IMG/VR virus record: IMGVR_UViG_3300011337_000669
Length of the DNA stretch: 64,000 nucleotides
Reading direction: 5' to 3' (one strand)
DNA from: a virus
Lineage: Duplodnaviria > Caudoviricetes
Under the pieces are notes generated by a model. It was not told where the DNA came from and ran no database searches. It saw only the letters and a list, made by a program, of their open reading frames with translations. Shown here piece by piece: positions 3,716 to 46,428 of the stretch. The position numbers and the translations under genes were made by a program. Numbering within the stretch: the stretch's first letter is position 1; each line of letters begins with the position of its first letter.

Positions 3716-4920
3716 ACTAATAATCCTTCAGGTGATATTTTTACTTGTTTACCTTTATTTTCAAATACTAAATTTTTCTTATTCGTAACTCCAACAATTT
3801 TTGCTGAAGAATTTTCTTCTAAGAATTTTTTAGCAGAAAATTCTTGTTCGATAGTTTCACTTAATCTTACAACTTCTTTCATTTGTTTTTTAACTTCAGA
3901 AACTTTTGTGTTTTTCCCCTTACTTTCAAGAATTTCTTTTTTAGAAATTTCAAAATACTTGGAGATTACTTTATCAACTTGTGATTCTCCGAAAATACTA
4001 TCAATGATTGCTCCGTTTCCATATCCCCCTTCTTCCATTTCATATCCCTCAACAGGAACATCCATATCTGCTTGAATATCTTCAACTTCACTATCATCAG
4101 TCATATCTAATCCACCCATATCATCTCCACCTAAATCTTCTGATTCTTCATCGAATTTAGACATAATATCTTCTTTATCTTCTTCGGATAATGACTTAAG
4201 GTCTAATGAAGATAATACCATGTTGATAACATACTTTATATCTTCAGAAGTCATTCCTTCTTGAGTGTCTAAAGTTCTAATTTTTTGGGTTAATTTTCCC
4301 GTAAGTTTTTGAATAGTTTTGAACGTAACTTGGTCTTCTTCTCCCGTTGCAGGAGTTTCAATATCCATAGATACATCTGTATCAACGTCTCCTTCAGGAC
4401 CCATATCCATACCCATGTCGATGTTTAATTCATCTTCTCCATCAGGCATTTCAGCACTTGGAGCTGGTGGTAAAGATGGTGAAGGAACTGCTGGTGGTGC
4501 TGCAGGTACCTCGGCAGCAGGCATTGGTTCTGCCGCTGGTTTAGGAGTTTTTAACGTGAATCTTTTTTGTTCTCCGTATAAAGAAACTTCTTCTTCGTTT
4601 TCATTGATTCTATTCAACTCTCCTGCCACTAAATTTAATCTTTTGAATGCTTGAGAATATGAAGAATAGTATTTTCTATTTTTCATTGGCTCAATATAAT
4701 CAGTCTCAGATTCTGAAATGGTTTTTTTAATAATATAACCCTGTCTTTCTTTAACTATTTCATACTTATTCCCATCGGCAAGAGAAATTGAATATTCAGA
4801 TCTCGCGGTTTCATTAATATTCGATGGTATTACCTCGTTAAAACGAGCAATTTCCATGATTCTTTTTAATTTATCTTGTCCAGTCAATTTTTCACTGCCA
4901 AGTGGTTTCAAATCTGCCAT
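3712..4920 (-). CDS. Highly acidic protein, possible head scaffold/core protein
   Basis: 402 aa, long D/E/M/P/G low-complexity linkers, near terL; function inferred only. Confidence 0.4.
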   Translation of the reverse strand: MADLKPLGSEKLTGQDKLKRIMEIARFNEVIPSNINETARSEYSISLADGNKYEIVKERQGYIIKKTISESETDYIEPMKNRKYYSSYSQAFKRLNLVAGELNRINENEEEVSLYGEQKRFTLKTPKPAAEPMPAAEVPAAPPAVPSPSLPPAPSAEMPDGEDELNIDMGMDMGPEGDVDTDVSMDIETPATGEEDQVTFKTIQKLTGKLTQKIRTLDTQEGMTSEDIKYVINMVLSSLDLKSLSEEDKEDIMSKFDEESEDLGGDDMGGLDMTDDSEVEDIQADMDVPVEGYEMEEGGYGNGAIIDSIFGESQVDKVISKYFEISKKEILESKGKNTKVSEVKKQMKEVVRLSETIEQEFSAKKFLEENSSAKIVGVTNKKNLVFENKGKQVKISPEGLLV

Positions 4921-4948
4921 ATTTTGATTTATTTATATATTTTTGTTT

Positions 4949-5131
4949 TTAATTGTTTAATCCTTGGAATCCTCCTAATGCAATAGCACTTAAGTCGTTA
5001 ACTGTTGTTCCTGTACCTGAAACGGCAACTGGGTGTGGGGCGACTGAACCCGCAGGTGCGGTACCTCCACTGAAATCCCCCAATATGTTTATGGTATATG
5101 CATATTGTACGTTTACATCTATAGTTCCCAT
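4949..5131 (-). CDS. Small Gly/Ala/Thr-rich late protein
   Basis: 60-aa ORF preceded by the TATTTATA motif seen before other late genes. Confidence 0.55.
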   Translation of the reverse strand: MGTIDVNVQYAYTINILGDFSGGTAPAGSVAPHPVAVSGTGTTVNDLSAIALGGFQGLNN

Positions 5132-5184
5132 CTAATTTTTTCTTTATAAATATATGGTTATTCACATTTATTAAGGTGTAAGTA

Positions 5185-5928
5185 TCAGTCTTCCAATTTT
5201 CTCTCGATAGAAAGTTCTTTATCGAGAGCTTTATTTGACATATCAAACAATTTTTCGATGTGTCCCGACCTTCTTAAAAACTTAAAAACCAAGTTTTCGT
5301 AAGAAAGTTCACCTTCTTTTTCCAAACCTGATTTTCTATAATTTTTTAACTTTTCTTTGATTGAATCTATCAATTTAATATCATCTTCCGAATTTTCGGA
5401 TTCAATTACCTTATCAATTTTTTCAGTCCAGTTTTTGATTTTCTTTTCCAAAACTGATTTATCAATCTCGTTTTCAAACTGTTTAGGTTTTGTTACCCAC
5501 TCATCATTCATTACTGAATAAACACCTGTTGCGAAATGTGGCTCTTCATTATCTTGTGCATATAATTCGACATCATATCCAAATATTTTAATATCATGTT
5601 TGTCGTTGAATACTTGTTTCTTTAGATTATATAATTCTTTATATAACGGCGATTCATCTTCGAATTGTTGTAAATCTACAAGAATGTGTAAATCAAAATC
5701 AGAATATTCCGACCAATTAAAATTTGCTAATGAACCAGTCAAAACAATATCTTCAACAAAAACATCTTCGCCAAGATAATCAATGAATTTTTCAGCAATC
5801 TTTAATAAAGCGTTTTTCACCTTCGGAACCATCTTTGCTTTCTGTGGGTTCTCAGGATTCTCCCAAATTTTTGGATTGAGGGTTTCTTGTACTGAAAAAC
5901 TATTAAGGATTTTTTGAAAATTATTCAT
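5185..5928 (-). CDS. Nucleotidyltransferase (Pol beta superfamily)
   Basis: VLTGSLANFNWSEYSDFDLH = GS...DxD signature; downstream VELY. Confidence 0.8.
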   Translation of the reverse strand: MNNFQKILNSFSVQETLNPKIWENPENPQKAKMVPKVKNALLKIAEKFIDYLGEDVFVEDIVLTGSLANFNWSEYSDFDLHILVDLQQFEDESPLYKELYNLKKQVFNDKHDIKIFGYDVELYAQDNEEPHFATGVYSVMNDEWVTKPKQFENEIDKSVLEKKIKNWTEKIDKVIESENSEDDIKLIDSIKEKLKNYRKSGLEKEGELSYENLVFKFLRRSGHIEKLFDMSNKALDKELSIERKLED

Positions 5929-34545: not shown

Positions 34546-35247
34546 ATGGGATATATTTATTTGTTGGTCGACACTAGAAATGGTAAAAAATATGTTGGTA
34601 AACATAACGGTAATAACAAAAATTATTGGTCATCAGGCATTTTACCGAATAGAATCGCCGAAAAATACGGTCGATCCGTGTTCACTAAATGTATATTGGA
34701 AGATAATATACCTGAACACTTGTTAAATGAAAAAGAGATTTATTTTATAGATAGAGAAAATTCTTTTACAGATGGATATAATTCAACTAAAGGTGGTGAT
34801 GGGGGAGGAGAATGGATATATCATAAATCTAAAGAAGAAAAAAAGAAAATCTCTGAAAATAAATCGAAGAAACTTTCAGGGAGAACTTTTTCTGATGCCA
34901 CTATTTTGAAAATGAAAGAATCAGGTAAGAAAAAAAAATTGACTGATGAACATAAAAAAAATATATCTATTGCGGTAAAAAAAAGAGGGGGGTTTCCACA
35001 TAGTGAAGAAACTAAAATGAAATTATCAGAGTTGAAGAAGGGAACGAAAAATGATCCTCACTCCAATTTCATGAAAACGAATAATCCGAATTTTTGTAAA
35101 ATTAGTATCAATGGAATTATTTATAAATCAATAAAAGAATATTCTATAATACATAAGATTTATTACAATACTGTAAAAAATAGATTAAATTCTAAAACAA
35201 AAAAATTTGAAGAATGGTTTAGGGTTAAAAACGAAAAAGAGGGGTAA
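34546..35247 (+). CDS. GIY-YIG homing endonuclease with NUMOD3-like repeats
   Basis: GYIYLLVD..NGKKYVGK, YNSTKGGDG, HSEETKMKLSE. Confidence 0.85.
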   Translation: MGYIYLLVDTRNGKKYVGKHNGNNKNYWSSGILPNRIAEKYGRSVFTKCILEDNIPEHLLNEKEIYFIDRENSFTDGYNSTKGGDGGGEWIYHKSKEEKKKISENKSKKLSGRTFSDATILKMKESGKKKKLTDEHKKNISIAVKKRGGFPHSEETKMKLSELKKGTKNDPHSNFMKTNNPNFCKISINGIIYKSIKEYSIIHKIYYNTVKNRLNSKTKKFEEWFRVKNEKEG

Positions 35248-39302: not shown

Positions 39303-39322
39303 TTTTTTATTATCTTTACGTC

Positions 39323-39997
39323 ATGATAAAGATAGATGTGAATAGCAAAGGTAGGACTGAACAAAATGTTTGGATATTCTCCGACCCTCACTACAACCAC
39401 AAAAATATATGCCGTGGTGTCACCAGCTGGAGAACTCAGGATGGTGAAATCCCGATCGAACAAACTCGAGATTTTCCAACTTTGGAAAAAATGAATTCCA
39501 CAATTGTTAACAACATTAATAATTGTGTAATGCCTGATGATACTCTCATATGTCTTGGAGATTGGTCTTTCGGTGGTTTCGAAAGTATCCGTGAATTTTG
39601 GGATAGAATCATGTGTAAAAACATCCACTTAATTTTGGGAAATCACGACCATCATATTGAAAAAAATAGAAATGATTGTCAAGAACTTTTCAAGAGTGTA
39701 TCTCATTACAATACTCTTGAAATAGGGCAATTTAAGTTTCGTTTGATGCACTACCCAATTAGTTCATGGGATGGTCTTGGCAAAGGTGTAATGCACTTAC
39801 ATGGTCACTGTCACCTTCCAACTCATTTAAGATTTGCTAAAGGTCAAAGAATGGATGTTGGTATGGATGGTCACCCTGAGTTCAGACCGTATAACATGAT
39901 GGATGAAGTTATACCACTCCTTCGTCATCGACCAAAAATTTCAGAAGTGGGAGAATATGACCACCATTTAGATAACATACAAAATAAAGATAAATAG
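39323..39997 (+). CDS. Calcineurin-like metallophosphoesterase
   Basis: SDPHYNH, LGDWSFG, GNHDH, HYP, HGHCH. Confidence 0.9.
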   Translation: MIKIDVNSKGRTEQNVWIFSDPHYNHKNICRGVTSWRTQDGEIPIEQTRDFPTLEKMNSTIVNNINNCVMPDDTLICLGDWSFGGFESIREFWDRIMCKNIHLILGNHDHHIEKNRNDCQELFKSVSHYNTLEIGQFKFRLMHYPISSWDGLGKGVMHLHGHCHLPTHLRFAKGQRMDVGMDGHPEFRPYNMMDEVIPLLRHRPKISEVGEYDHHLDNIQNKDK

Positions 39998-40189
39998 ATA
40001 TGGGAAATTGGTTTTTTCACAAAAGCAGATTCGTAAAATTCGAAGGAAGATACTGGATTATTCCGTGTATATCACTTTGGATTGACAGGTATTATTTCTT
40101 GGAGACAGGAGTTGAAACTCCTGCCTTTGGTATTCAGATAAGTTTTCTTAACTTTGCTTTTGGGATGACCATACAAAAACGATATTGAA

Positions 40190-40588
40190 ATGAAAGAACT
40201 ATTCTTATTGAGAGGATTACCAGGTAGTGGTAAAAGTACATTAGCAAAAATGTTGGTTGGTGATAAAGATTATCGCCACAAAGAAGCTGATATGTATTTT
40301 GTTGATGGAGATGGAAATTATAAGTTCCAACCATCCAAAATCAAAGAAGCTCACAAATGGTGTCAAGAAGAAATTGAATTCCTAATGAAGTATGAACATT
40401 CTTCAGTTGTAGTATCAAACACATTTACTCAAGAGTGGGAAATGGAAGAATACTATAAGTTGGCAGAGAAGTATGGATATAGAGTTCATTCCCTTATTGT
40501 TGAAAATAGACATGGGGGAGTAAATGAGCACGGAGTACCTTCTGATAAATTAGAACAAATGAAAAACCGATTTGAAATAAAGTTATGA
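40190..40588 (+). CDS. P-loop kinase (AAA_33/polynucleotide kinase-like)
   Basis: LRGLPGSGKST, EADMYF, VVSNTF, HGVP...MKNRFE. Confidence 0.85.
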   Translation: MKELFLLRGLPGSGKSTLAKMLVGDKDYRHKEADMYFVDGDGNYKFQPSKIKEAHKWCQEEIEFLMKYEHSSVVVSNTFTQEWEMEEYYKLAEKYGYRVHSLIVENRHGGVNEHGVPSDKLEQMKNRFEIKL

Positions 40589-41051
40589 AAAAGAAAATAT
40601 TTCAAGGTATCTCCTTAATTGGAGTGTTTACTTTAGGTATGTACACTGCAAGCCAATTTGTGTTTGGTACTCCAGTGGATACCCATAGATGGTTAATAAC
40701 CATCCTCGCAATTGTATTCCTTTTGTCATTTGCCGACGAAACAGAAAAAAAATAAAATTAAACCAAATTAAATAATATGTCACTACAAACACTAATTTTC
40801 AACACAAAAACCAAATCCGTCATAGTTTACGAAGGAGAACATCATTCAAAAATTCTTTACACTTTCCAAGACGTTCCAACCGTAAAAGTTTTGGACACAT
40901 ACTACGAAGTCATGGTTAAACAGGCAAGTGAAGAAGGAGAAATAAGAGTACCTGTAGGTAGATTTCCAGTCTCCAACACAAATATGTTAATCCAAAACTA
41001 ACATTTTCTTTTTTCCATTTTTTTTAGTACCTTTGGGAATACGATAAAAAA

Positions 41052-41486
41052 ATGGAATTTGACTTAAACATATTGAACGATTACATAGAGAAGGGTTTGG
41101 TGGTTAAAAATGACCACCCTACCCTTCCTTTGTCTATATACAACTACACCAGAAAAGCACAATACGAGAAATTGTGGGATAATATCACCAAAAGTTGTAG
41201 AGGATTAGTTTTGGATAATCAGGGAAATGTAATCGCCAAATCTTTCGATAAGTTTTTCAACTTAGAAGAACATTCTCCTCAAGAAATACCAAATGAAGAA
41301 TTCGAAGTTTACGAAAAACTCGATGGAAGTTGTATAATTTGTTTTTATTACAAAAATAATTGGATTTTTGCGTCTCGTGGTTCATTTACAAGTGAACAAG
41401 CTCTAATGGCAGAGAAATTATCAAAAAAATATCCAATCAAAATGTTAGATAAAAGTAAATCTTATGTATTTGAAATAATTTATTAA
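41052..41486 (+). CDS. RNA ligase (T4 Rnl1-like), N-terminal fragment
   Basis: YNYT, CRGLVLD, FDKFFN, YEKLDGS (motif I), ASRGSF, YVFEIIY then TAA. Confidence 0.85.
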   Translation: MEFDLNILNDYIEKGLVVKNDHPTLPLSIYNYTRKAQYEKLWDNITKSCRGLVLDNQGNVIAKSFDKFFNLEEHSPQEIPNEEFEVYEKLDGSCIICFYYKNNWIFASRGSFTSEQALMAEKLSKKYPIKMLDKSKSYVFEIIY

Positions 41487-41539
41487 AAAATAGTTATCCA
41501 TTTTTTCATAAAACTCATATTTATAGTAAAGTAATAAAT

Positions 41540-42502
41540 ATGAGAATAAGAAATAAAATTTGCCCATTTTGTAATGAAAAAATATCAACCATAAATCATT
41601 TGAAAAAATGTAATCCAATTGTAGATGATAATACCGCAATTCAATTAATGATAGAAAAAACATTCAATTGTAATGTAGTAGACATTATTAACGATTATAA
41701 AAAAGGATTATCATTACCTGATATTAAAAGCAAGTATGGTCTTAGTTACAAATACACCAAACAATTGTTGATATTATTTGGGGAGTCAACGAGAACCATA
41801 TCAGAATCATGTAATCAAAATAGATTAAAAAAATGTAAACAAACTGTTATTGATAGATATGGTGTTGACAATGTTAGTAAATCTGAAAAAATAAAAAAGA
41901 AGAAAATAAAAACATTTATATCAAATTATGGGGTGGATAATATATTCAAAACAGACGGATTTACTGAGTATGTAAATAATAAATGTATTGAAAGATATGG
42001 AAAAAAAAGATTAACCAATCCCCAAAAGATATCAGAAAAAAGATTAAATTTTTCTGCCGAAAAATGGGAAAGTATTAAATCAAAGACACGAAAAACAATA
42101 CAAGAAAAATATGAAAATGGTGAATTTACTGATAAATACATATCTTCTCTTGAATTTATAGTTTCAGAAGTATTTGATAGAAATGAAATTGAGTATACGA
42201 CTCAAAAATTTATAGGTGGGTTGTCATATGACTTTCATATTACAAATACAAATATTATTGTAGAGGTGAATGGAGATTATTGGCACGCTAATCCAATTAT
42301 ATATGAAAGCGATGAGACTATAAATTATGCTAATAAGGGACACATACCTGTCTCAGATATATGGAATAGAGATTTAGAAAAGAAAAATAATGCAATTGAA
42401 TTTGGATATACGGTTTTGTATATTTGGGAGAGTGATATAAATGAGAATATAGATTATATAGATGAATTCATATTATTGGAACTATTAAATTATGGCAGGT
42501 AA
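41540..42502 (+). mobile_element. Free-standing endonuclease gene (Vsr/DUF559-like PD-(D/E)xK) inserted in the RNA ligase
   Basis: CPFC N-terminus, RYGVDNV repeats, YDFHI..IIVEVNGDYWH...LYIWESD; own TATTTATA at 41518-41525. Confidence 0.8.
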
Positions 42503-43097
42503 GAACAGAATTGTAGTTGATTACGGAGATTATGAAGGGTTAGTTTTATTAGGAACCTTTGATAATAATGGGAAAGAATATGATATAGATATTTGGAGAC
42601 AATATGGATTTGATGTTGTTAAGAAATATGACGGCATACAGGATTATAAGACCCTTAAATCTTCTATCTCCAAAGAAAGGGAGGGTTATGTAATAAAGTT
42701 CAGAAGTGGTCTCAGAGTCAAGATAAAAGGGGAATTTTATGTTCATCTCCACAGAATCTTAACAGGGTTTTCAAATGCCCATATTTGGGAATATTTGAAA
42801 GACAAAAAAGACATAACCACCTTGTTAGATAGTGTTCCTGACGAATTTGACTCATGGGTAAAAAATACCGTGAAAGATTTGGTCGATAAATATGAAAATA
42901 TCCTGAAAGATTATACCGAAATATTCAACGAACTGAAATCAAAAAATTTGGATACAAAAGAATTTGCAGAAAATGCAAAAAGATATGAACATCCGTCAAT
43001 ATTATTCAGTATGTTGAATGGAAAAGATGTGTCTCCATTCATATGGAAAATGATAAAACCTGAATTTAGCAAACCGTTTTGGATGAAAGAATCATGA
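42492..43097 (+). CDS. RNA ligase, C-terminal fragment
   Basis: MAGKNRIVVDYG, LVLLG, REGYVIK (motif IV), RVKIK (motif V), YVHLHRILT. Confidence 0.85.
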   Translation: MAGKNRIVVDYGDYEGLVLLGTFDNNGKEYDIDIWRQYGFDVVKKYDGIQDYKTLKSSISKEREGYVIKFRSGLRVKIKGEFYVHLHRILTGFSNAHIWEYLKDKKDITTLLDSVPDEFDSWVKNTVKDLVDKYENILKDYTEIFNELKSKNLDTKEFAENAKRYEHPSILFSMLNGKDVSPFIWKMIKPEFSKPFWMKES

Positions 43098-44441
43098 AAC
43101 CGAGTTTAGAAAAAATATTGAGCAGATACATTGTTCACACAGGATTTTTTGATATAAATTCAGTTGAAAAATGTATGGAAAAATCTTATGATTTGGGGAT
43201 TGAGGAATTTTTGGAATGGTTATCAAAACAAGACCATTTGTCCGACAACATAAACTACATCATCGAAGAATGGGAGAACAAAAATAAATTATGAAATATT
43301 ATCTTTTGGTTTTGGCATTTCAAATTATGTTCAATATCTTTAAGGTGTTAGAAATAAAATACACATACGAGAACAAGTTGAGTCTATTGTTGTACAATTC
43401 CATTTACATTAACTTAGTCGCATTAGCATCAGTTTATTGGTCATTGGACCTTCTGTTTGAAGGTGATTGGTGGGTAATTCCATTTTATGTTGGTGGAAGT
43501 GTTATTGGAAAATGGATTGCCATGCGTCATGTTGAAAATATCAGATACAAAATATTCAAGTTATTCGGAAAAAAAATTAGTAAATTACAGAATAAACCAG
43601 TCAAAACAGATGAAGACTAACACAGAAAATAAGTTTGAATTCAAGGATAATAGACCTTTCAAAGAAAAGACAATAGATTTTCTACAAAGTCTTATGTTTT
43701 GGAAGGGTAGAAAAAAAGGAATGATTTTTACTAGAAATATTTCTTTGGACGAACTCCGTGCAGTTTTTTTTCCAAAAAATTTTTACGAGAAGTATCATTA
43801 TTTAGGATCAGTTCCTTACCGAGAAGATGGGAAATTGTTTAAAGCATTGTACCCTTTAGTTCTTGCCATGGACTATGAGGCAAAACCTAAATGGTGTCCA
43901 AGATGGGTTCTACGTTTTCTTCACTTGTTTGGTTCTGATAATTCCATAGTGAGAGTTCGTAATTTCACTTTACACAATTTGGAGAAAAAACTTACAAAAG
44001 GAATGATGATGTGGGATTACAAAACTAAGTGGACGGATTATGATTTGAGGATTTCAATCAACGCACCACAACATCTTCAGGATTTGGCAGATTACATCGA
44101 AGATGGATATTATTCTAAAGGAAGACAAGAAGAATTGGTTGGAAAGATTAAGGCTATCGATCCTGAGGCAAAAATAGTTTGGGGTAGTGTTGATAGATTA
44201 GTTGAACAGTACAACAAATTAAACAGTAAAACAGACCAAGACACTTATGACTATATCAGTTGAAATATTAATAGCAATTTTCTTTGCACTTCTAACACCC
44301 ATTGTTATTTCTATTATGTGGGTAAAAGGTATAGATTATATGCAAAAAAATCATCCCGATTACAAAGGATATGACTTATTTGATGAAGGAGAAGAAGATA
44401 AACCTCTTGACGAAGATGAAAAAGATGATATCAAAAATTAA
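43079..44441 (+). CDS. Four hypothetical genes (43079-43294, 43291-43620 membrane, ~43610-44263, 44247-44441)
   Basis: Overlapping co-oriented ORFs. Confidence 0.5.
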
Positions 44442-44525
44442 ATTGATTCTGAAAGATATTTGGTTGGGAATCACCCTATCCAATGAATTCAAAAATAACC
44501 ACCAACAATGGCCTAAAATTTAGTT

Positions 44526-45596
44526 ATGAATAAAATAGATTTACAATATCAACAACTCCTACAAGATATTCTTGATAATGGGGTGGAGAAAAAAACTAGG
44601 AATGGTGACACTATTTCAGTATTTGGTAGACAAATTCGTCACAAAATGAGTGAGGGGTTTCCACTATTGACTACAAAAAAAATGGCATTTAAGACGATGG
44701 TAGTTGAGTTACTATGGTTTTTAAGAGGTGATACGTCAATAGAGTATCTACTTAAAAATGACTGCAACATATGGACGGGAGACGCTTATAAGAACTATTG
44801 TAATCAAATTCCTGAGTATAGTAAGCAATTTACTATGTCTAAAGAAGAGTACATTGAAAAAATAAAAACTGATGATGAGTTTGCAGAGAGATTTGGAAAT
44901 CTCGGAAAAATCTATGGGCATGGTTGGCGTAACTGGAATGGGGAAATCGACCAAATATCGGAGTTAATTGTGTTATTAAAAGAAAGTCCTGATTCCAGAC
45001 GTATGGTTGTAAATGCTTGGAACGCCTCAGATTTACCTCACCAAGTTTTGCCACCTTGTCATTATGGATTTCAAGTTTATACACGAGAGTTGACAGTTGG
45101 TGAAAGATTAGATTTGGCATCAAAAACATATGGCACATTTGACCCATTTGATTTCGGTTTCGGAATACCTGAAAAAGTAGACCATAATCAAATAGATGAA
45201 TTATATCCGGTTCCCAAACGAGCAATTTCTCTAATGTTCAATATGAGATCATCGGACACTTTTCTTGGATTGCCATTTAACATCGCATCTTATGGGTTGT
45301 TATTGGAAATTATTGCAAAGGAAGTAAATATGGTTCCTGATGAATTGATTGGTAATTTGGGTGATGTACATCTATACAAAAACCACATTGAACAAGCAAA
45401 AGAACAAATGTATAGAAGACCTTATGATTTACCAAAAGTTCAAATCACCGAAAGAAATTGGTATCAACATGAATTGGTTAAAGAACATTTGGGTGAAAAA
45501 ACTTTCGATCAAAAGATTATGAGTTATAGGCCTGATTGTTTTGAGTTAATTAATTATCAGTATCATCCAACCATCAAAGCTCCTCTGTCCAATTAA
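44526..45596 (+). CDS. thyA: Thymidylate synthase
   Basis: TRNGDT, FPLLTTKK, ELLWFLRG, SRRMVVNAWN, LPPCHYGFQ, RSSDTFLGLPFNIASY, DVHLYKNH. Confidence 0.97.
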   Translation: MNKIDLQYQQLLQDILDNGVEKKTRNGDTISVFGRQIRHKMSEGFPLLTTKKMAFKTMVVELLWFLRGDTSIEYLLKNDCNIWTGDAYKNYCNQIPEYSKQFTMSKEEYIEKIKTDDEFAERFGNLGKIYGHGWRNWNGEIDQISELIVLLKESPDSRRMVVNAWNASDLPHQVLPPCHYGFQVYTRELTVGERLDLASKTYGTFDPFDFGFGIPEKVDHNQIDELYPVPKRAISLMFNMRSSDTFLGLPFNIASYGLLLEIIAKEVNMVPDELIGNLGDVHLYKNHIEQAKEQMYRRPYDLPKVQITERNWYQHELVKEHLGEKTFDQKIMSYRPDCFELINYQYHPTIKAPLSN

Positions 45597-45599
45597 GTC

Positions 45600-46428
45600 G
45601 TGCAAATTGTTATTCTACTCAGTAAAGATGTTCCTGAAGATATTTCAGAATTAATCTTGGGACACAAGTTGGAGGGTGGTTACTCGATAGATTACGCATT
45701 AAATTCTTTGGTTTCCTATCATAATGGTAAAGAAATTATTATATTTAATTTCACAAAGTACCTCGTATTAGATAACAGGTTTAGTGGATATAAAATAGAC
45801 GATTACGGAACGAAAATAGTTATAAATTTCAAATAAATGTTAAAGTTAACAGAAACACAAAAAAATCAAACTTATGAAATAAGTTTGCAATCTAATGGTA
45901 TTGTTGTCGGTTCATTTGTAAAAATTGATGGATTCTTTTATTATTACCCGCCCAAAGAAAGATTTTGGGGATGTTATTCAGAAGAATTTCTCAAGAGTTT
46001 ATCAAATGAGTTAGAAAAATTAAATTACCCAATTAATAAAAGTATTGACGAATACTTCGAATTACAAACATAGAATTATAATATGGAAGATTCGAAAGCT
46101 CGTTGCAAATGTGGTTGGCCTTGGATATTCCATTATAGTTCAAAAGGAAAAATGAATGCAATATTCAAGGCCAAGCTCCCACAAAAAACTATTGAAGATT
46201 ATATAAAAGGAGATTATTGGCTAAAAAATGAAAAAAGTTAAAGAAGTATTTGTAATTTTTAATCCTTACGATAATGGATACTATGATGGGGAAGGGTTCT
46301 TTCGAGGTATTCTATTTTGCAAAAAATATGTTGAGAAAGAAAATGCGATATTAGATATCGAAAAAATATTGAACAGTTCAATTGGAAAAACTTACTTAAA
46401 AATTGAAACATTACACACCAACTCGTGA
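45600..46428 (+). CDS. Small hypothetical genes (45600-45836, 45837-46073, 46228-46428)
   Basis: ORF track, co-oriented with thyA. Confidence 0.45.

Follow-up and report, generated by a model that had tools for sequence, protein, structure and literature searches.

To our knowledge, only a handful of genes have been fractured by an endonuclease gene and yet remain functional with neither RNA nor protein splicing, and NrdA of the Aeromonas phage Aeh1, for which special tails are required, is the sole case that has been studied biochemically. The Aeh1 nrdA gene is split by mobE, a free-standing HNH endonuclease gene, and the activity of the resulting two-chain enzyme is proven (Friedrich et al. 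2007; Crona et al. 2011, PMC3045599). Dassa et al. 2009 (PMC2677866), who first described the family of Vsr-like homing endonucleases, reported 26 fractured loci whose proteins are rejoined by split inteins, with eight types of host enzyme, RNA ligase not among them; the same paper includes an intein-less SbcD-like locus, with a Vsr-like gene, in which tails of 25 and 9 amino acids have been inserted. Free-standing cassettes also split the gp43 DNA polymerase gene of Aeromonas phage 25, through a GIY-YIG insert, and the topoisomerase genes 39/60 of T4, through mobA, in each case with adaptations that keep an essential phage gene functional (cited in PMC2677866 and PMC2988022). Here we describe a locus of this kind in a 64,000-nucleotide stretch of viral DNA (Duplodnaviria; Caudoviricetes; IMG/VR record IMGVR_UViG_3300011337_000669), referred to below as the window, in which a gene for an RNA ligase of the T4 Rnl1 family is broken inside its catalytic domain by a free-standing gene for a Vsr-like endonuclease, and in which the two halves probably still make one ligase.

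The two ligase halves are co-oriented and their open reading frames (ORFs) lie 1005 nt apart, so that the ligase is not a single ORF in the window (Table 1). The C-half opens with ATG GCA GGT AAG, giving a protein that starts MAGKNRIVVDYG (MAGKNRIVV), and its ATG overlaps the 3' end of the endonuclease gene by 11 nt. Taken jointly, the halves lack no ligase sequence, and the only addition to the C-half is Met-Ala. The endonuclease ATG is enclosed by an 11-bp hairpin at 41514-41544, in whose 3' arm it lies (z = -3.35; 1 of 200 shuffles folds as well); Dassa et al. (PMC2677866) also reported hairpins ahead of the start codon in free-standing endonuclease genes of this sort. A terminator scan of the same strand found no terminator-like site in 40500-43400.

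Table 1. Coordinates of the split ligase locus and its neighbours in the window.
Feature	Position	Strand	Description
RNA ligase N-half	41052..41486	+	144 aa + TAA; C-terminus ...SYVFEIIY
Spacer (endonuclease 5' leader)	41487..41539	+	53 nt; starts AAAATAG
Free-standing Vsr-like (EDxHD-type) homing endonuclease	41540..42502	+	320 aa; DUF7487, DUF559, phrog_3339
RNA ligase C-half	42492..43097	+	201 aa + stop; motifs IV and V, helical C-terminal domain
Approximate mobile cassette	41390..42620	+	endonuclease gene plus flanking ligase coding sequence (upstream ~95 nt, downstream ~130 nt)
Metallophosphoesterase	39323..39997	+	224 aa; PF00149, phrog_547; calcineurin-type
P-loop kinase	40190..40588	+	132 aa; AAA_33, phrog_505 polynucleotide kinase

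The locus is like that of Aeh1, which the original prediction had cited as its precedent and which PMC3045599 confirms as one, in having a free-standing endonuclease ORF between co-oriented halves, neither intron nor intein, and active-site residues on both fragments. The two differ in host gene and in endonuclease, nrdA with an HNH enzyme there and an RNA ligase with a Vsr-like enzyme here. They differ also in that the C- and N-terminal tails derived from the Aeh1 insertion are essential for assembly (PMC3045599), whereas the junction in the window adds nothing beyond the two residues, and in that two-chain activity is proven for Aeh1 and predicted here. With the loci of Dassa et al. (PMC2677866) the window shares its gene order, the hairpin over the endonuclease start, the use of Vsr-like and of GIY-YIG endonucleases with NUMOD3, and a source in phage metagenomes, but its ligase carries no intein sequence and, unlike the SbcD-like protein, no tails. 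The gp43 and 39/60 cases involve other host genes, and the window contains no translational bypass element.

By profile, by motif order and by fold, the last as modelled for an intact homologue, the ligase is assigned to the T4 Rnl1 family. The N-half matches PF09511 (RNA_lig_T4_1) over positions 2-94 (E 1e-12), and the intact homologue L004 matches it over positions 2-224. In phrog_562, the T4 RnlA family, the N-half covers positions 20-164 and the C-half 167-367, so that the two halves abut in the family profile. When they are aligned to T4 Rnl1 (2c5u), EKLDG of the N-half falls on the motif I lysine and FEIIY on the motif III glutamate, while EGYV of the C-half falls on motif IV and KIK on motif V. 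Residues K89 and E141 of the N-half align with T4 K99 and E159, and E64-G65, K77 and K79 of the C-half with E227-G228, K240 and K242. The break is three residues past the motif III glutamate, inside the nucleotidyltransferase domain, and lies between the equivalents of A162 and P163 of T4 Rnl1, a single chain of 374 aa. Across split and intact forms the catalytic residues are invariant (36 N-half and 28 C-half sequences), with R50, K67, F69, K89, G92 and E141 among the invariant columns of the N-half. In T4 Rnl1, 11 residues are reported to be essential, R54, K75, F77, K99 (the adenylylated lysine), G102, K119 and E159 having equivalents in the N-half and E227, G228, K240 and K242 in the C-half; the residue numbers and motif names are those of the Shuman-laboratory mutational studies. 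The equivalent of K119 is an arginine in the N-half of the window.

An AlphaFold2 model of the intact homologue L008, which is 74-79% identical to the halves, has a predicted local distance difference test score (pLDDT) of 90.7. In this model the break falls where the motif III β-strand (residues 137-144) finishes and leads into a loop; the helical C-terminal domain begins at about residue 229. The three top Foldseek matches of the model are all T4 Rnl1 entries (E 1.4e-17 to 2e-16, ~374 columns).

Intact alleles of the gene are common among relatives of the window. When IMG/VR was scanned with the C-half, 26 loci were found, and 22 of these encode the ligase in one frame of ~350 aa with the junction EIIY-P/K/N-Q/E/H-NRIV; that so many related loci encode the same protein as a single ORF implies that the reading of the window as a split gene is not due to chance. 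The original prediction had placed an Rnl1-type ligase here, split by an endonuclease ORF, and this agrees with the coordinates, with the PF09511 and phrog_562 matches and with the intact relatives. The break that it drew between EIIY and xxNRIVVDYG is the EIIY-x-x-NRIV junction of the 22 intact loci, its assignment of motif I (EKLDG) to the first ORF and of motifs IV and V to the second follows from the T4 Rnl1 alignment, and the 53 nt that it gave between the first stop and the endonuclease start, as well as the overlap of the second ATG with the endonuclease stop, were read again from the sequence.

The original prediction did not see how widespread the split is, nor that it recurs and is actively homing. 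In L001, L002 and L023, where the flanking genome is ~91-92% identical to the window, the ligase is broken after the same EIIY, the insert being a 272-aa GIY-YIG/NUMOD3 gene and the C-half starting at a GTG 3 nt past its stop. A search with the N-half, covering 5.8 billion proteins, found dozens of stand-alone N-halves with 52-97% identity, and the C-half was searched likewise. The terminus E[IV]IY is present in 27 of the 28 fetched N-half clusters of 139-149 aa and in three clusters of other lengths (P0027, P0046 and P0053); in total, at least 30 N-half clusters from metagenomes stop at precisely this point. Clusters with the C-half alone number 14, are 201-214 aa long and all start M-x-G-x-NRIV; they are a minority compared with the intact forms of ~350 aa. 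Two N-halves, P0027 (189 aa) and P0047 (178 aa), carry an insertion of ~45 aa just past the motif I strand (...YYEEEL...NNNY...EPTP...GEWH...), which is an extra surface module; P0027 nevertheless ends in FEIIY, and P0047 stops earlier, probably at the end of its contig.

The genes found between the halves are of unrelated kinds. The insert is a Vsr-like gene in L087 and L094, a GIY-YIG gene in L090, L092 and L095, a divergent 214-aa GIY-YIG gene in L093, and in L091 a GIY-YIG gene of which an internal deletion of ~640 nt has left a 50-aa relic. Between the Vsr-like and the GIY-YIG inserts of this site there is no nucleotide similarity. In seven complete split loci from diverged phages a stop codon (TAA, TAG or TGA) directly follows FE[IV]IY in every case, and the C-half start codon is at one position, giving M-x-G-x-NR[IV]VVDYG; spacers across the split loci are 38-70 nt long. 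At least 24 contigs, drawn from many samples, carry the GIY-type allele of L001, and the Vsr-insert allele of the window was recovered independently in the European Nucleotide Archive (ENA) scaffolds L098 and L099. An apparent break in the endonuclease gene of L098 was rejected, since it is a scaffold gap of N's. Among cultured phage genomes, a megablast search with the locus gave no match, and tblastn found only distant, intact ligases of at most 43% identity and no close relative of the endonuclease.

The insert of L091, 219 nt long, is made up of the leader of the GIY gene, 48 of its codons and its 3' end, and both ligase halves are open. Its deletion lies between two similar short stretches (FW-DFNN and WHFDNC codons; L091:3484-3636), which suggests that it arose by short-homology recombination. 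The L093 spacer (L093:532-604) can form an interrupted hairpin of 26 bp (-23.4 kcal/mol, z = -3.0), far stronger than those of the other alleles' spacers.

The endonuclease of the window comprises an N-terminal CPFC...H...C finger, two YGVDN repeats (DUF7487) and, towards its C-terminus, a Vsr-like nuclease domain (DUF559, E 1e-5). Alignment with nine homologues from viral contigs shows that every family-invariant residue is retained, in the finger, in the repeats and in the nuclease block EVNGDYWH...D...K...IWE; D231, E242, D246, H249, D278, K281 and W296-E297 are among the invariant positions. No close relative of solved structure was detected by sequence.

Several features of the ligase sequence around this gene point to its mobility. 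Nucleotide similarity to the intact alleles of the closest relatives is undetectable over the cassette stretch, ending at 41389 and returning at 42621 for L008, with corresponding limits of 41326 and 42621 for L004 and of 41345 and 42615 for L010. Between the window and L098, divergence is 0% in the spacer and 0.3% in the endonuclease gene (3 differences in 952 nt), but the proximal flanks differ by 1.8-2.7%, the distal halves by 3.9-6.4% and the upstream backbone by 13.5%. N-halves grouped by a shared junction-proximal haplotype are, within their groups, 94-99% identical over their last 52 aa but only 69-77% over their first 88 aa, a contrast that is absent from the intact alleles (89% versus 90%). 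In a tree of the junction-distal part, a clade of intact alleles has the window and L001 nested within it (support 99/99), whereas in the junction-proximal tree the same intact alleles form a clade (98/95) that includes neither the window nor L001. The divergence gradient, the haplotype mosaics and the disagreement between the trees are signs of active homing with co-conversion, in which the endonuclease would cleave the intact allele.

In GIY-type loci the I-Y-x-Q-N-R-I-V-V-D-Y codons occur a second time, in register and decayed, just past the N-half stop, matching at 24 of 32 positions in L001 and at 25 of 33 in L091, a score that none of 500 shuffles reaches. The duplicate is a footprint of the original insertion, and it explains why the C-half restarts upstream of the true insertion point. 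The Vsr-type spacer of the window has only AAAATAG left, which may be what remains of the ligase K-N-R codons, although the match is not significant (81 of 500 shuffles do as well).

Does the ligase still work when split? We propose that a Vsr-like cassette, seated in the nucleotidyltransferase domain of an Rnl1-family gene, brings with it a stop directly behind EIIY and a start (M-A) just ahead of G-K-NRIVV. With stop and start supplied by the cassette, the ligase would be made as two chains, one of 144 aa with motifs I and III, the other of 201 aa with motifs IV and V and the helical C-terminal domain. Most likely the two fold together, without a covalent link, around a single active site, and the enzyme, together with the neighbouring kinase and phosphoesterase, would reseal broken tRNA or other RNA. 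The cassette itself would spread by cutting intact alleles and being copied into them with roughly 50 ligase codons on each side. That two co-folding chains form an active RNA ligase is, on the sequence evidence, probable; their separate translation, their physical assembly and their activity we infer from the conservation described below.

A number of observations weigh against this conclusion. The support for either polypeptide, for their association and for their activity is indirect, and no Shine-Dalgarno sequence is recognisable ahead of the C-half ATG. The break is within the catalytic domain rather than between domains, and, unlike Aeh1 NrdA, the halves have no added tails to serve as interaction domains. 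The cassette is mobile and, as the comparison of the window with L098 indicates, was shared very recently, so that the open halves could in part reflect recent invasion of intact genes. The stop and start are carried along by the cassette, so the fact that they are conserved does not count as wholly independent support; part of the conservation of the halves may likewise stem from unsplit ancestors, in which much of the selective signal may have accumulated.

These points lead to the alternative that the insertion inactivated the ligase and that the halves are young pseudogene fragments, which look intact because the cassette keeps invading fresh alleles together with its own flanks. The very recent homing, with three differences in the endonuclease gene against 13.5% in the backbone, would fit such an account, as would the location of the stop and start within the co-converted cassette, the accessory nature of RNA ligase genes and the two frameshifts in the unsplit ligase gene of the relative L100. 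It is harder to reconcile with L091, where both halves remain open although the endonuclease gene is dead after the loss of ~640 nt, or with the retention of every catalytic residue in more than 40 distinct split-half clusters. The ratio of non-synonymous to synonymous substitution rates (dN/dS) between the window and L001, both of them split alleles, is 0.12 for either half away from the junction (p about 1e-7), and kinase and phosphatase partners still adjoin the ligase in several diverged split loci. We therefore consider inactivation rather unlikely. T4 gp63/Rnl1 has a second, non-catalytic function in tail-fibre attachment, to which the phrog_562 annotation also points, and both halves might have been kept for a role of that sort, or for AMP binding or as a decoy, with no joint ligase activity; that the interaction of the halves is deduced indirectly leaves some room for this. 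A non-catalytic role would not need the catalytic residues of both halves to be invariant, however, nor is it suggested by halves that are always found adjacent and together, and we regard it as distinctly improbable.

The remaining alternative is that the insert is a self-splicing intron, of group I or another type, with a ribozyme overlapping the endonuclease ORF, so that one restored ligase mRNA is produced. An in-frame join, for example TAT-T to GT-AAG, is formally possible, as the original prediction had allowed, and would give the spacing of the intact alleles; in group I introns of phages, moreover, a stop codon often lies directly past the 5' splice site, as in T4 td. Rfam models, however, detect no RNA or intron family in 40500-43600 at E<=10, in keeping with the prediction that no group I core would be visible, and no intron family in six other split loci at E<=1. 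The non-coding sequence amounts to 53 nt upstream of the endonuclease gene and none downstream, spacers elsewhere are similarly short, and the 219-nt insert of L091 is fully accounted for by its three GIY-derived parts. Vsr-like and GIY-YIG inserts at one site share no sequence and thus no common intron core, and the constant position of the C-half start codon in all alleles is something that splicing would not need. Nor are there intein fragments, since the halves hold nothing beyond what runs on uninterrupted as ligase in intact homologues. We conclude from these sequence comparisons that the insert is neither intron nor intein; splicing is very unlikely.

If the halves do form a two-chain ligase, the cassette may be viewed as a portable gene-splitting module, made up of the endonuclease gene, its leader, the stop, the start and ~50 co-converted codons on each side. 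Homing would then install matched, pre-adapted junctions, so that an invaded Rnl1 gene stays a working, tail-less two-chain enzyme, and Vsr-like and GIY-YIG endonucleases would use, and be exchanged within, the same break point. We offer this larger scheme tentatively, as a possibility that falls short of being the likelier outcome. The locus joins a known class of endonuclease-fractured phage genes and is not categorically new. What appears to be new is the host enzyme (literature searches for split phage RNA ligases found no paper describing a split Rnl1), the tail-less break in a catalytic fold, and the population picture of one break point occupied by two endonuclease families. Intact, Vsr-split and GIY-split alleles, with a split allele whose endonuclease gene is dead, form a natural series that opens to test the fission of a catalytic domain with no added tails, the minimising of host damage by selfish cassettes and the sharing of sites by endonucleases. 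An Rnl1 that is self-complementing by nature might also find use as a split-enzyme tool.

The locus also suggests that an RNA-repair module of the phage is under selection. The phosphoesterase and kinase genes lie upstream of the ligase on the same strand, the former encoding a candidate RNA 3'-end healing enzyme and the latter a candidate polynucleotide 5'-kinase, to judge from their sequences; the kinase also matches phrog_8238, a kinase-ligase fusion profile, over positions 1-106. Healing and sealing by such a set is known from T4 Pnkp and Rnl1. T4 RNA ligase 1 (gp63/RnlA; PDB 2c5u, 5tt6, 9do4) thus resembles the ligase of the window in family, motif order, fold and end-healing neighbours, with the difference that the kinase and phosphoesterase of the window are separate small genes and that its phosphoesterase is calcineurin-like where that of T4 is of HAD type. 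In more distant split-ligase phages, separate AAA_33 kinase and HAD_SAK_2 phosphatase genes flank the split ligase (L087:5517-6457; L092:1473-1871 and 4899-5302), a T4 Pnkp-like chemistry, in contrast to the calcineurin-type phosphoesterase of the window. The block at 39318-40765, which holds the phosphoesterase and P-loop kinase genes along with ORFs of 62 aa and of 56 aa (the latter membrane-like), is missing in L004, L010 and L098 and present as a ~91% identical copy in L002 and L023; its absence from some relatives makes the RNA-end-healing genes an indel polymorphism beside the ligase.

Three further observations concern relatives and the rest of the window. The protein P0049, from L100, was considered as a shorter N-half and rejected, being the product of an unsplit ligase gene with two frameshifts. 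This gene (L100:3001-4060, on a 251-kb contig) has the junction MFELIKENNRIVV, and one of its frameshifts is at an A-run; it is either a decaying gene or the result of homopolymer sequencing errors. On the + strand at 34546-35247, a 233-aa ORF is weakly similar to the L001 GIY-YIG endonuclease (29% over 177 aa, E 5e-4) and may encode a second free-standing homing endonuclease of this genome. Finally, the stretch 44438-46207 is missing in L001 and L002, which otherwise match the window at ~92% on both flanks; it holds a 356-aa thymidylate synthase gene (44526-45596), whose ThyA product is ~70 aa longer than the span of the PHROG profile.

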